Shown one piece after another: positions 3,351 to 60,399 of a DNA stretch of 64,000 bases. The stretch comes from Eledone cirrhosa (Eukaryota), in assembly GCA_964016885.1 (NCBI GenBank), contig OZ024741.1:39928001-39992000 (forward strand). The letters run 5' to 3'. The notes beneath the pieces were generated by a model. It saw only the letters and a list, made by a program, of their open reading frames with translations. It was not told the origin of the DNA and searched no databases. Numbering within the stretch: the stretch's first letter is position 1; each line of letters starts with the position of its first letter. The translations under genes and the position numbers were made by a program.

Positions 3351-3568
3351 TATAGATAACAAGGAATCAGTGATGCATCAAATCACAATTTATTAACATA
3401 TTACATATGTTTCTCCGACGATCAGCTCAAGGCAGGGTCTATTATAGATCGAACCTGATTCTGCATTCGATCTAAAATAGATCCTGCCTTGAGGTGTTCG
3501 TCGGAGAAACATATGTAATATGTTAATAAATTGTGTTTTAATGCATCACTGATTCCTCGTTATCTATA
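3351..3568. repeat. Fold-back palindrome (about 100-bp arms), PLE 3'-end-like
   Basis: TATAGATAACAAGGAATCAGTGATGCAT... is the near reverse complement of ...ATGCATCACTGATTCCTCGTTATCTATA; a related single arm lies at about 50120-50235. Confidence 0.92.
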
Positions 3569-3977
3569 AATATATACTCTGCTCCGTGTGAGCATCTAGT
3601 ACTCATACGGCATACCACCTACAGACGCATTTATTGCAACCGTACAACAACTATACACACACACACACACCCACACACACACACACACACACACACACAC
3701 ACACACACACAGACACACACAGACACACACACATATATATATATAGTATTCAATTATTTGGTTTATATAAAAACTATAAATATATAATAGCTCTGCATGA
3801 CCCTCATTGCATTGAGCCAAATAACACCCTGTAAATCAGTATACTTACTCTTATTAATATTATCATATATATGTATATATGGTAAAGTATCTGTTAGTTA
3901 ATCACCGACACTATTACATGCAGGATAGAGCAAGTAATGACGTATAGATGTTGGTATGTTTACCCCGGTGTATAGTT

Positions 3978-4172
3978 ATAATAATTGTTTCTACATTTGG
4001 CACAAGGTCAGCAATTACCCCAGTACATTACTGATACTTATTTTATCGAAACTCGTAAGGATGAAAGGAAAATTAACCGCGGGGGGATTTGAAATCATAA
4101 AGCATAAAGGAGCGTAATTCTATGCTACAAAGCATAGAGTCCGACCCTCTAGCGATACTGCCTGCAATTCAA
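3978..4172 (-). mobile_element. Family S SINE
   Basis: Reverse complement of the SINE consensus. Confidence 0.85.
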
Positions 4173-4184
4173 CAAGTTAGAATT

Positions 4185-4353
4185 TCGACAGCTAACAGCT
4201 AAATCCGAACGCGCTCGAATCCAGTTTTCGAAACGGCCAGAGCTCAGCCGACGGAGTCCTGATTCTTTTCCTATTACCCAGTCGACTACCCTAAGTATCG
4301 AGTACTCTGATGCGTTATGGTCCACATGGTTCCTTACCACACTTTCTTTGTTA
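4185..4353 (+). mobile_element. Non-coding repeat family Q (PLE pLTR-like 3' end)
   Basis: GAAACGGCC..AGCTCAGCCG...GCGTTATGGTCCACATGGTTCCTTACCAC...(TA)n; other copies at 22361-22436, 25561-25643, 42968-43142, 48931-49036. Confidence 0.75.
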
Positions 4354-6191
4354 TATATATATATAGATACTTACATACTTATATATATATATATATATAT
4401 ATATATATATATAATATATATATATATATATATATATATATATATACATAGTTACATACTTACTTATATATATATATATATATATATAAGTATGTAACTA
4501 TGTATATATATATATATATATATATATATATATATATATATATATATATATATATATATATTTTACACGCCCTACATATATATATATATATGAACATGAA
4601 GACTGAGCTTATATTTGGAGATATGTCGTGAACTGCGCAGACGGATATTTTTACATTAGACTATTAGAATGAAGCAACTCCTCTCTGTTTTGGCTAGTGT
4701 GTATTAATATTTGAATATGAATGAAGGCGGTAATTCACATATTTCCGCTATTCTGATATGTGAATGAAGATCAGAACGTTCGCGAACTGTACTTCTGGCA
4801 TTCTTTACGTGCAATGTAATAAACTGCGTAAGCCAGTATATACATGGCAGATTAGCTGATAAGTGTTCATCCTTTGTTACTTGTTAGGACTGATTCCATG
4901 ACAGATATTTTTCCCTGATGGCCTAGAGTACACCAATCCACACATTCAATTCCTCCCATCGAATTAACTTTCAAGTTGCAACAGTGATTCTAAATCCAGT
5001 GCACTCCAGTCACTGGAGATAGGAAATGTCATTTGGTCACTTATTACTAGACATGTGTTGGGTAAAGTGTGATTAGTATCATCCTTTGAAACTGATTGGT
5101 TGATGAATGTATTACCTGTTGCGTTGCAGATTTCCGTACGAAGTAATGAAGTAATGAGTGGCTAAGAAGTTTGCTTCGCAACCATGAGGTCTTCGCAACC
5201 ATGAGGTCTTCTCCAGGCATGATATCTTAGACAAGTATTGATAACATTGTCTTGGGTGAAAACCGTACATGAAATTCAACGCTCCGGCCTCGTCATTGTA
5301 TATTTTGCCACGCCGATTCTACCAGAGGATTCCGTTAATGATACACGTGTTTGTGAAATACTCAGCTACTTGCACCATAATATACGATCAATTGTCCCTG
5401 TAATTCAAAGATCTAGTATTTTTCATGCAGATTCTGCTCGAGAATTACGTTAAGGAATCCTCAACCACTTACCTGTTAATATCACCTTAAAACTACTGAA
5501 TGCTAATCATTGTGACCGACGGAAAATCCGTCAACATCATCATCATCCTCATCATCATCATTGTCATCACCATCATCACCATCATCATCAGATAATAGGG
5601 CTAATCTGTCAAACATAGACTCATGAATGCAGATTTCATGCGGTTAGTAATGATACTGAAGTCACACCCCAGTGACTTGAAGCTGGAAATCTAGCAGAGA
5701 GAAAGAGGAAGAGAGTGGGAGATAGATACATAGAGAGAGAGTGAGAGAGAGAGAGAGAGAGAGAGAGAGAGAAAGAGAGAGAGAGAGAGAGAGAGAGAGA
5801 GAGAGAGCGAGAGAGAGAGAGAGAGAGAGAGAGAGAGAGAGAGAGAGAAATGTGATGGGATCCGGTGTCGATAGGATATTCCATTTTGATGTCTATTTGG
5901 CCATTAAGTGTCATTGACCCTGCCTTGTTTGCTGTCTGCCTTCCCACGAGAAGTGAGCATGCAAATGTCATCTCCACATAGTTGAAGAAGAATTAGTAAC
6001 AACAGCAGGTGAAGTGTTTTAACTTAGCTGATGACTGTATGAGAGCCCAATGGACTAGAGGTGATGTCTCTTAGTATATTGAGTCACACACCCACAGACC
6101 CCCCCTCCCCCCACACACACACACATATATATATATATATATATATATATATATATATATATATATATATATATATATATATATATATATA

Positions 6192-57010: not shown

Positions 57011-58314
57011 ATGGCCTGGGCCAATACTGGCCAAAACCCATCAAAGTTATCAAAGTTATATATATGCATGTGTATGTATATATATATATATATATATACA
57101 TACGTACATATTCGTATATACACACATATATATATATATGTGTGTGTGTGTGTGTGTGTATATATATATATATATATACAGTATATATATATATATATAT
57201 ATATATATATATATATATATATATATATAAGCTAAAGGTCGATATGCACATTTATTTAAGACACTCCAATATTGGCTACAAGGAAAATAACAACACCAAC
57301 AACTACAACAAACATATGTAATACAACTATTCATTTTCTTATCACAGACCAAGCAGCGCCACATCCCAGAAACAATTAGGATCAACAACAGCAGCAATAT
57401 AAAAAAAACAAAATAATTTAAAGACAAAAGCCGCCATTTTCCACACAGAAAAAAGAAGCCAACTCAGCTACAACACCGAGGAGAATAGTTAGAATATGAA
57501 CCATAATAGTACTCAAGTGATTCATGCTATGATATGCTGTTGCCTGAAATACGATTCTTTGTGATTCCCTGTTAGTCTATAGTCTGAGTTACGTAAATGT
57601 TCTCCGTAGGTTTGATATGTTAAACTATGGTCAGTGTATTGTGGTTGTCACGTTTCAGAAAGTTAACGTCTGCTTACAGCAAATTGGATTGGCAACTGAT
57701 TCATCATGATATATATATACATGTATGTATATATATATATATATTTACATATGCATGTAGGTATATATATATATATATTTACATATACATGTATGTATAT
57801 ATATATATATTTATATATACATGTATGTATATCTATACATGAATGTATATATATATATATATATATATATATATATATATATATATATATATATATATAT
57901 ATATATATACATACATGTATATATATATATATATATATATGTATATACATATATATATATATATATATATATATATATATATATATATATATATATATAC
58001 ATGTATGTATATATATATATTTATATATACATGTATGTATATATATACATGAATGTATATATATATATATATATATTTATATATATATATATATTTATAT
58101 ATATATATGTATATACATATATATATATATATATATATATATATATATGTATATATATATATATATATATATATATATCCATGTATATACATATATGTAT
58201 ATATATATATATATATATATATATATATATATATATATATATATATATATATATATATATATATATATATATCCATGTATATACATATATATATATATAT
58301 ATATATATATATAC

Positions 58315-58968
58315 TGACTTGTACTTGTGTCGACATTCACCCTGGACGGGTTTAGCCGGCTTCTTCCCTTGTCCTCACGGCATCCCGAACCATGGCAGCC
58401 CAGGCACGACGGTCCCGGGCTAGGTCACTGGAGATAGCAAGCCAGTCACGGTTCCATCGGCGCAGGCCGACCACCTGCGGACCTGAGAGTTCGGAGAGGT
58501 CCTCCTTGATCGTCGTTGCGCAGGTCTTCAGCTGCCCGCCAACGCGCTTGCGGCAGTTAGGGAGTGGAGGTGGGAGGAGTACATCACGGATCAGCTCACC
58601 CTCAGGGCGCCGGGCTGCGTGACCATACCATCTCAAGCGCCATTGCAGAAGCACTGAAGGAAGGGGTTGAAGATTCAGGCGAAGACGAAGACTGGCGGTA
58701 GGTACCCGATCAACGCGTCGGCAGCGAAGAATCCGGCGGAGACAGTCATTGTCGAAGACCACCAGCCCCCGTTGATCGACTACCCTTATACGCCATGTTT
58801 CACAGCCATGGAGGAGGATAGTGAAAACGACGGCCTGGTAGATTCGCCCTTTGGTCGCCGAGATTATCTCTCTTCTGTCCCACAGACACCGCTGGAGGCG
58901 CCCAAAAGCGGGTCTGGCAGCACCTATGTGACATTTGACCTCGGCTGCGCCCTGTCCCGTTGGAACCA
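58315..58968 (-). mobile_element. RTE-clade LINE 3' fragment
   Basis: KGRIYQAVV.TILLHGCETW, DNDCLRRIL, RLRWYGH, ARDRRAW; tail CAAGTACAAGT. Confidence 0.9.
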
Positions 58969-59838
58969 CAGCTAAGTTCCCAGGCAATGCGCGGACACTA
59001 GGGACTCATATAAAAATAATAATTCAGTGGGAACTTAGCTGAGAATAGAGTCCCTGATGACGTAATGAATTCTCGATAGTTACATTGCGTAACTATATTT
59101 ATCCCATTACAGAAACTAATTAGATGGAGTGAAAATTTTAGTAAGTTAATTTTTAATTTTTAAAATGTTCTTATTTTACGTCTTTCATATAATTGTTCTG
59201 CATCCCCTGCATTGAACCACCTAGGTACTTTGACATAACTTATATATTTACTAGCATTAGTGTACATCTGTACGCATATGTTGGTAGATGTACTAATTCT
59301 CTATATTTATCTCCAAATTATTTATTTGTTGAGCAAACTTGCCAAATCCACTGCTAATTCATAGTAGTAGAAGTAGGCTCTTGTCATAATACCACCCCAC
59401 TCCTACTAACTAATCTCAGTGTCACGTGATTGATTCTTTAGAATCTGCCACTTGACCAGAGGCAGTGAGCTTTTTCAGTGCTATGGAATTTAGTCTTCGC
59501 TAGCTGTTCTATCCACCGAATTATTATTTTTATATGAGTCCCTAGTGTCTGCGCATTGCCTGGGAACTTAGCTGAGAATAGACTCCCGGATGACGTAATG
59601 AATTCTCGATAGTTACATTGCGTAAATATATTTATCCCATTGCAGAAACTAATTAGTTGGAGTGAAAATTTTAGTAAGTAAGTTAATTTTTAATTCTTAA
59701 AATTTTCTTATTTTACGTCTTTCATATAATTGTTCTGCATCCCCCTGCATAGAACCACCTAGGTACTATGATATAACTTATATATTTGCTAGCATTAGTG
59801 TACATCTGTACGCATATGTTGGTAGATGTACTAATTCT
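58969..59838 (+). mobile_element. Non-coding 533-bp tandem repeat with inverted 5' segment and HHR-like motif
   Basis: GAGAATAGA at 59041 and 59574; 58969-59030 is an inverted copy of about 59513-59574; CTGATGA C GTAATG...CATTGC GTAAC. Confidence 0.8.
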
Positions 59839-60135
59839 ATATATATATATATATATATATATATATATATATATATATATATATATATATATATATAGAG
59901 AGAGAGAGAGAGAGAGAGAGAGAGAGAGAGATTGATTGATTGACCAACGGTTAAAATACAGATGTAAATACATATACATAGTCTATCAAAGTTCTTTCGT
60001 CACACATCTGCGACATCATCAGTAGTACTAAATATATATATATATATATATATATATATATATATATATGAATGAAGTAATTCCGTCGGAAAAGTCCAGG
60101 AAAAAAGAGTGCTCTATGTAGGTAACATAACTTAA

Positions 60136-60399
60136 TAGTTATGTAATAAACAACATAAGGCAATGAATTCTATTTACCAGTGGATTCTTAAAAGCAAAAA
60201 ATGTTGCTTTCAATCATCAGAATGAAAAAATCCTGGTCTATTTATTGAATTGGATTCTTAAAAAAAAACTTTTTTAAGAATCCAATTCAATAAATAGACC
60301 AGGATTTTTTCATTCTGATGATTGAAAGCAAAGTTTTTTGCTTTTAAGAAACCACTGGTAATTGGAATAATTGCCTTATGTTGTTTATTACATAACTAT
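60136..60399. repeat. Fold-back palindrome, about 130-bp arms
   Basis: Symmetric about 60268; each arm carries CTGATGATTGAAAG. Confidence 0.92.

Follow-up and report, generated by a model that had tools for sequence, protein, structure and literature searches.

Insertions of endonuclease-positive (EN+) Penelope-like elements (PLEs) such as Penelope/Poseidon, Neptune and Naiad carry an inverted, 5'-truncated copy of the pseudo-long terminal repeat (pLTR) and a tail on one side only (PMC8557442, PMC3846280). TATA and initiator-like words are known as promoters in pLTRs (PMC3846280), and an internal promoter has been reported for PLE (PMC2377424). For the anole PLE (Poseidon, Anolis carolinensis) it was found in vitro that both target strands are cut and extended, that two internal start sites of the reverse transcriptase (RT) define the tail, that the length of the product follows the 5' end of the RNA, and that cleavage by the hammerhead ribozyme is dispensable (PMC11167929). 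The origin of the inverted and tandem structures of PLEs and the function of the hammerhead are named as open questions (PMC8557442). Here we analyze head-to-head palindromes in a stretch of 64,000 nucleotides of Eledone cirrhosa (GenBank assembly GCA_964016885.1, contig OZ024741.1, positions 39,928,001 to 39,992,000, forward strand; hereafter the window) and in further parts of the same genome.

The palindromes resemble the published EN+ PLE insertions in many respects: an inverted copy is joined head to head at the 5' end, the junction is palindromic, the tail is optional, the target is (TA)n, and the pLTR harbors a putative type I hammerhead as well as TATA and initiator-like words. Unlike the published elements, they are mostly stubs without open reading frames (ORFs), occur several times per 64 kb, and have tails of 31-82 nt versus the 30-40 nt reported so far. 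The stubs are real, abundant and an already known kind of PLE insertion, and the elements themselves are ordinary. What we add concerns the junction. Within each family, the inner ends of the arms were shown to pile up at a single position, which only few stub arms pass. Judged from the sequences, an axis that marks the start of the RNA appears to be the better-supported and testable reading, compared with a snap-back at the ribozyme. In the available parts of PMC8557442 and PMC3846280 we found no description of a sharp inner edge that is specific to the family and linked to promoter words, and our literature search, which covered few subscription papers, yielded no paper that connects inverted PLE junctions with either the ribozyme or the transcription start.

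Two kinds of samples were used. The unselected sample comprises 1.254 Mb (464 kb made up of the window and its surroundings, plus 790 kb from dispersed places) and was chosen regardless of these elements; palindromes were called by masked BLAST, the short-spacer class having a spacer of <=60 nt and arms of >=25 bp. For the tail-selected loci, the query in the genome search was restricted to the outer (3') part of a single arm, which makes the ranking blind to the junction. This gave 30 loci each for families A (named after the window copy at 22041), B (6192), C (19878), D (60136), E (42968) and F (3351), 20 for G (27256), six for the repeat at 29284 and 20 for I (58969). Since scoring was limited to the 40 best among 74 to 2102 candidates per search (6/6 for 29284), the loci are skewed to close relatives of the window copy. 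Four loci of family B, representing the same insertion twice, were left out. Axis coordinates count from the hammerhead C3 as 0, and the footprint reaches from -10 to the end of GAAA. Axis and edge counts of A, B, C, D and F leave out the window copies, whereas the junction-type counts (n=97) include them. Edge positions have an alignment uncertainty of 1-3 nt, which is larger where the junction overlaps.

The arms were shown to be pLTR sequence of PLEs that stops at either of two fixed outer ends, one including the 31-82-nt tail and the other lacking it. These two alternative 3' ends were fixed in all six families with 30 loci. The outer ends of the inverted arms were fixed as well (C 14/15, B 10/11, F 13/14, D 16/17), being either equal to the far end or 31-82 nt short of it, and the short outer end is also found in solo arms. 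In three families (B, C and D), the repeat continues into PLE ORF sequence. Long copies of B have an upstream ORF with RT-thumb, CxxC and GIY-YIG (L188, PF01541 E 1e-6), those of C have endonuclease-like remnants approximately 1 kb upstream (L225, L232) without Pfam match, and in D the tail continues downstream into an RT ORF with YRDD (L245, L268, L269). The link of family G to a PLE ORF is weak, and for A, E, F and I none was found within the flanks of 1.5 kb scanned per locus. The combination known from EN+ PLEs is present here: a pLTR with an RT/GIY-YIG ORF, an inverted 5'-truncated copy, an optional tail and a microsatellite or AT-rich target. An earlier interpretation made from the window alone (the sequence-only reading) had proposed ORF-less PLE-end insertions with a partial inverted pLTR and one longer arm, and had named missing homology of the arms to PLE termini as a refuting condition; the proposal was supported, and B, C and D run into PLE ORFs. 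The window also contains a PLE RT-thumb and GIY-YIG remnant at 16542-17576 (-), 43% identical to the family B ORF, and a GIY-YIG remnant at 26223-26823 (+), which is followed 226 nt on by the hammerhead core of another PLE family.

A second relationship is to the animal non-LTR retrozymes (bioRxiv 10.64898/2026.07.22.740005), which are likewise non-autonomous, hammerhead-bearing and pLTR-related. This likeness fits family I (58969) and family J, the only ones with tandem monomers each carrying a type I hammerhead; tandem monomers of this type were not found at the other nine named places, and most palindromes of the window are, unlike these retrozymes, single head-to-head stubs. Family J is a hammerhead-bearing tandem-monomer repeat at 19129-19636 and 48088-48778 of the window, with inverted pieces separated by spacers of 190-260 nt, cores at 19364 and 10877 (-), and 5' ends dispersed from -62 to -120.

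The inner edge is sharp. In family B, 15/25 arms end no more than 4 nt from -44, the stretch from -48 to -175 holds no arm end, and six arms extend far upstream. In family A 16/29 arms end at -6, in C 10/29 at -5 and in F 6/29 at -35; the modal edge of D at -44 holds only 5/29 within 4 nt. Among the arms of family E, 38/93 end at the A of AGTY, preceded by mixed bases. Solo copies next to TA runs end at the same edges as the palindromes. In long copies a TATA-like word precedes the edge by 30 nt in A, 31 nt in B and 32 nt in I (two stubs only), versus a chance rate of 49/3469 (1.4%); the word of family A recurs in about a dozen long copies. Families C, E, F and fam3a have at the edge an initiator-like word, following the initiator consensus of pyrimidines and then A, without a clear TATA. 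A semi-blind prediction set beforehand for fam9 was successful: a TATA lies 30 nt before the predicted A, 10/30 stub arms end at -51..-47, none at -52..-109 and three at -12..-6, and five copies run on. AGTY stood at 30/84 junctions versus 15.8 expected.

The position of the axis relative to the ribozyme differs between the families. Among the tail-selected copies, it falls into the hammerhead footprint in 14/15 palindromes of A (median -2), 13/15 of C (median +3), 7/14 of F (median -4), 3/17 of D (median -42.5) and 0/11 of B (median -44). The 135 short-spacer inverted repeats of the unselected sample consist of 35 from family E, 47 others that could be placed and 53 that are not placeable. 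Of those placed, 21/47 have the axis in the footprint, and they form the majority in 3/11 families; fam3 has 1/10, and fam9, fam11 and fam14 have 0/2 each. The axes of fam3 lie at -10 to -100, those of fam11 at -120 and -162, and in several families the turn comes 35-160 nt upstream. With few exceptions, the axis lies in the hammerhead or upstream of it, and its distance is a property of the family and not of the ribozyme. The sequence-only reading had assumed a preferential snap-back at the ribozyme, which as a general rule is contradicted by these counts. Self-complementary words in the hammerhead stems often supply the junction overlap: 43 of the 97 junctions overlap by at least 2 nt, 23 are blunt and 31 contain filler. 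Examples of the overlap words are GATC in family F, a run of T/A in family D and, in family C, the core or stem I; in this way hammerhead sequence comes to stand at junctions.

The 135 short-spacer inverted repeats in 1.254 Mb correspond to approximately 7 per 64 kb, and 82/135 were assigned to hammerhead-bearing families. The microsatellite setting claimed before was confirmed, since a dinucleotide run lies at an outer end of 96/135 inverted repeats versus 289/1926 random intervals (15%). An adjoining inverted arm was found in 91/170 tail-selected loci. CTGANGA..GAAA words numbered 175 versus 30 in reversed or complemented controls (664 kb), an approximately six-fold enrichment, and a stricter hammerhead descriptor gave 7 matches versus 0 in the control. 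Candidate hammerhead motifs with stem I pairing are seen by eye in A, B, F, G and I; C has a U4A core, and D has no clear stem I. In E the arms begin inside stem II, CUGANGA is found in 1/93 arms, and only the back half of a hammerhead is present. The Rfam search that had been suggested as a check gave no match reaching the gathering score, neither for the window nor for seven loci of the families, and in the scan by E-value microsatellite hairpins swamp the best 150 of 372 rows.

Some additional observations concern single families. Ten matches to one family G palindrome repeat at approximately 110-kb spacing on C20, between about 4.0 and 5.2 Mb (L337, L341-L349), and form a large tandem segmental array. 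Raw DNA reads from a reduced-representation library were mostly <95% alike to the family A loci, and their source is probably a related organism; they contain one class of head-to-head joint, in 4, 5 and 5 reads with 1-2 start places, which gives no confirmation of the window's own junctions. In the reads of the related organism the family A promoter region leaves at the core position (L170:1385-1461) for another short end and a microsatellite, as if the family A promoter segment were common to another repeat. In family D (for example window 60208-60340, L240-L263, L003-L030) the stem III loop differs between the arms in 18/30 palindromes, and the loop alleles recur while adjacent subfamily sites agree, with tail-arm labels that are not fully reliable. 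These loop differences may reflect a quasi-palindrome mutation hotspot or independent RT errors in each arm. An apparent arm-specific allele in family C (+46, C in the tail arm and T in the inverted arm) was rejected as a selection effect of ranking by identity to the window copy: C occurs in 1/60 chance arms, namely the window's own. The site +92 in family B may be the same selection effect.

At all ten places of the window for which inverted duplications had been claimed, inverted repeats were confirmed, and eight of them are short-spacer palindromes with 31-130 bp arms. Of the other two, 29284 has arms of only 15 bp, and 58969 is not a fold-back but a 5' inversion before a tandem dimer. The description as mostly unrelated families stood insofar as nine families are represented; 42968 and 48931 belong to one family (E). 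The places are as follows.

3351: arms 109 bp, 94% identity, spacer 12 nt; family F stub at 3345..3654, inverted arm 3345-3453, tail-bearing arm 3466-3654 (+).
6192: arms 79 bp, 99% identity, spacer 0; family B stub at 6188..6414, inverted arm 6188-6267, + arm from 6268 with the core cut at +2.
19878: arms 31 bp, 97% identity, spacer 1 nt; family C stub at 19878..20064, inverted arm 19878-19908, tail-bearing + arm, axis in the core.
22041: arms 130 bp, 93% identity, spacer 6 nt; family A stub at 22036..22302, both arms extending to the far start site.
22143..22165 (-): hammerhead core CTGATGA..GAAA in the left arm of 22041, with the mirror core at 22172-22194 on the + strand.
27256: arms 36 bp, 94% identity, asymmetric spacer of 37 nt; family G stub at 27187..27361 (-), tail-bearing arm on the - strand, degenerate core.
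29284: arms 15 bp, 93% identity, spacer 6 nt; marginal inverted repeat at 29284..29319, an old low-copy hammerhead-like end with 5 other matches of 74-80%.
42968: arms 38 bp, 82% identity, spacer 18 nt; family E stub at 42970..43140 in (TAGA)n, tail-bearing + arm, half hammerhead consisting of GAAAC, stem III and GTC.
48931: arms 51 bp, 100% identity, spacer 16 nt; family E stub at 48925..49042, tail absent from both arms.
58969: arms 62 bp, 97% identity, spacer 482 nt; family I at 58969..59838 (+), tandem dimer whose hammerhead-bearing monomer measures about 530 nt, preceded by a 5' inversion of 62 bp at 58969-59030.
60136: arms 130 bp, 95% identity, spacer 4 nt; family D stub at 60070..60399, tail 60070-60134, arms 60135-60265 and 60270-60399.

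It had further been stated that the axis lies in or just 5' of a CTGANGA..GAAA motif in most cases. This applies to some of the copies (22041, 6192, 19878), and even there with specific features. At 22041 the spacer is the 5' strand of stem I, and the - arm extends to -6. The copy at 6192 is atypical for family B, as its axis is in the core whereas the family edge is at -44; the window is home to the one in-core copy, compared to 0/11 among the other B palindromes. At 19878 the canonical CTGAAGA arises from the junction, and family C itself has CAGAAGA. Elsewhere the statement fails: at 3351 the axis is within a long stem II and the core is cut away, at 60136 it is 47.5 nt 5' of each core (60315-60327 +; 60220-60208 -), family E lacks CUGANGA, and at 27256 and 29284 core or GAAA is degenerate. 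The junction at 58969 lies about 25 nt 5' of the core and 31-32 nt after a TATA-like word. Only 22041 and 60136 have a CTGANGA..GAAA word on each strand; with the other 8/10 places lacking this, the proposed class of bidirectional ribozyme hairpins is not supported. Outside the palindromes, the window contains hammerhead cores with a 13-17-nt stem II at 6670-6693, 46575-46598, 55832-55855 and 59995-60022 (-). A further inverted repeat with 68-bp arms, an 81-nt spacer and a tail lies between TA runs at 51281-51507; a hammerhead core was not seen in it, and a relative is found approximately 58 kb upstream.

We regard it as rather probable, from the arrangement of edges and words, that the stubs are head-to-head PLE ends in which the sharp inner edge corresponds to the transcription start, both cut strands having been primed and their products joined. 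The inner edge would be the 5' end of an RNA begun at the pLTR promoter. An RT/GIY-YIG protein would nick both strands of AT-rich DNA, as suggested by the anole PLE in vitro (PMC11167929), and the use of two internal start sites near the RNA 5' end would give each cDNA a length of only 60-250 nt before run-off. Priming of both strands at the sites nearest the RNA 5' end would leave two short cDNAs that run off at the start and are joined head to head; this palindromic joining of the two products is our proposal, and was not shown in the available part of the anole work (PMC11167929). The two cDNA ends may be joined bluntly, with filler or via the nearest self-complementary word, and bases may be lost. 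The inferred RNA start adjoins or falls inside the ribozyme in A, C and E. As the hammerhead would follow the start at a distance of 0-100 nt and contains many self-complementary words, the axis would come to lie in it in families with a nearby start (A, C, E) but not in B, D, fam9 and fam3.

Several expectations of two-strand priming are seen, namely fixed outer ends on both arms and an inner limit at the start. The tail pairings also fit, since 22041 has both far ends, 48931 both short ends and most copies are mixed. Asymmetry in either direction is likewise expected and seen, the arm without tail extending further 5' in 33/91 palindromes and the tail arm in 23/91. In L1 twin priming both target strands prime on the RNA and a 5' inversion results, which fits 58969. 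However, L1 inversions are not known to duplicate the 3' end, whereas both arms here start near the same 3' sites, and for this reason the inversion becomes a palindrome. More tentatively, and with chances that we put somewhat below even, the axis could serve as a genomic map of the transcription start of each family, the stubs could be products of two-ended target-primed reverse transcription in vivo on the first 60-250 nt of the RNA, and some families, such as E, could be self-perpetuating pLTR stubs resembling short interspersed elements, whose RNA starts inside the hammerhead and retains only the substrate half.

A number of results weigh against this interpretation of the edge. The blind prediction for family J failed: 0/35 arms ended at the predicted -18..-16 in a test on chance copies, and no arm ended between -61 and +6, which leaves no pile at the ribozyme either. 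The excess of AGTY is weak outside family E (14/49 versus 9.9 expected), and the remainder gave 5/51 versus 10.7. In families C, D, E and F a TATA at -30 is absent, and in D the modal edge lacks AGTY. An untemplated G, the mark of a cap, was found in A 9/15, C 7/19, B 2/21 and E 10/38, counts confounded by junction overlap. Moreover, the edge positions were taken from the data themselves, which leaves a freedom of 1-2 nt, family I rests on two stubs, and in B, C, D, F and G the words at the edge, which contain YAG, are similar to 3' splice acceptors as well. The joining of two products meets objections as well: subfamily variants of family D agree across the arms (e.g. 14 in both and 1 discordant, of 31), which fits a fold-back equally, and asymmetry of the arms could come later from central deletions.

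Such a fold-back would leave the edge as the RNA start and differ only in the joining step: a single cDNA would snap back at the transcript start and copy itself up to a TA-like site that anneals to the target, with later central deletions giving the asymmetry. We consider this unlikely, but not remote. Self-priming has been argued for (PMC3846280), the arms of D have their subfamily variants in common, 43/97 junctions overlap at self-complementary words, and the short arms have their outer ends at TA-rich words. But the same short outer end exists in solo arms, 54/97 junctions are blunt or contain filler, and comparing the arms for extension >5 nt further 5', the tail-less arm reaches further in 33/91 palindromes and thus has 5' sequence missing from the tail arm (the tail arm reaches further in 23/91). 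A snap-back of RT or repair specifically at the hammerhead structure, the model of the sequence-only reading, could account for the axes of A, C and F in the footprint, for all 35 E palindromes if half a ribozyme is counted, and for some C junctions joined via complementary stem I strands (L214, L229, L235, L236). It does not explain B and D, fam3, fam9, fam11 and fam14, or why the footprint holds a majority in few families only. The solo, non-inverted copies stop at the same edges, so that the edge needs no fold-back, and hammerhead mutants left insertion in vitro unchanged (PMC11167929). Hence, this model appears quite improbable.

Equally doubtful is that the edge is due to a 3' splice site, where RT would stall because the acceptor is bound, or that it reflects the 3' terminus of an antisense template. 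In D. virilis the Penelope intron stops at the 5' boundary of hammerhead helix I (PMC4209133), an antisense template has been proposed (PMC3846280), and pyrimidine tracts in D and G accompany the YAG words. Against this, the E arms stop before the A of AG (38) and not after the G (11), a shared upstream exon was not seen, the nearest GT in A and B is just 27-29 nt upstream, and the TATA spacing in four families is not predicted. Artefacts of assembly or amplification, or fixed palindromic miniature inverted-repeat transposable elements, seem hardly credible as an explanation. Fold-back chimeras do exist among long reads, and the TA flanks resemble mariner-type targets. Nevertheless, the arms differ by up to 18%, end at element ends rather than in unique flanks and have junctions specific to each copy, which argues against assembly fold-backs, and fixed elements are at odds with junctions that differ copy by copy and with the existence of solo and ORF-linked copies.

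The presence of many families with different promoter-to-ribozyme distances allows this genome to separate the ribozyme from the promoter as the cause of the junction, and the edges of the stubs represent base-level predictions of transcription starts. Counted from the hammerhead C3, the starts would lie at -6 in A, -44 to -42 in B, -5 in C, -35 in F, -50 to -48 in fam9 and about -25 in I, and in E at the A that precedes GAAAC by 18 nt. If true, two-ended priming would explain the long-unexplained inverted pLTR and tail of PLEs.

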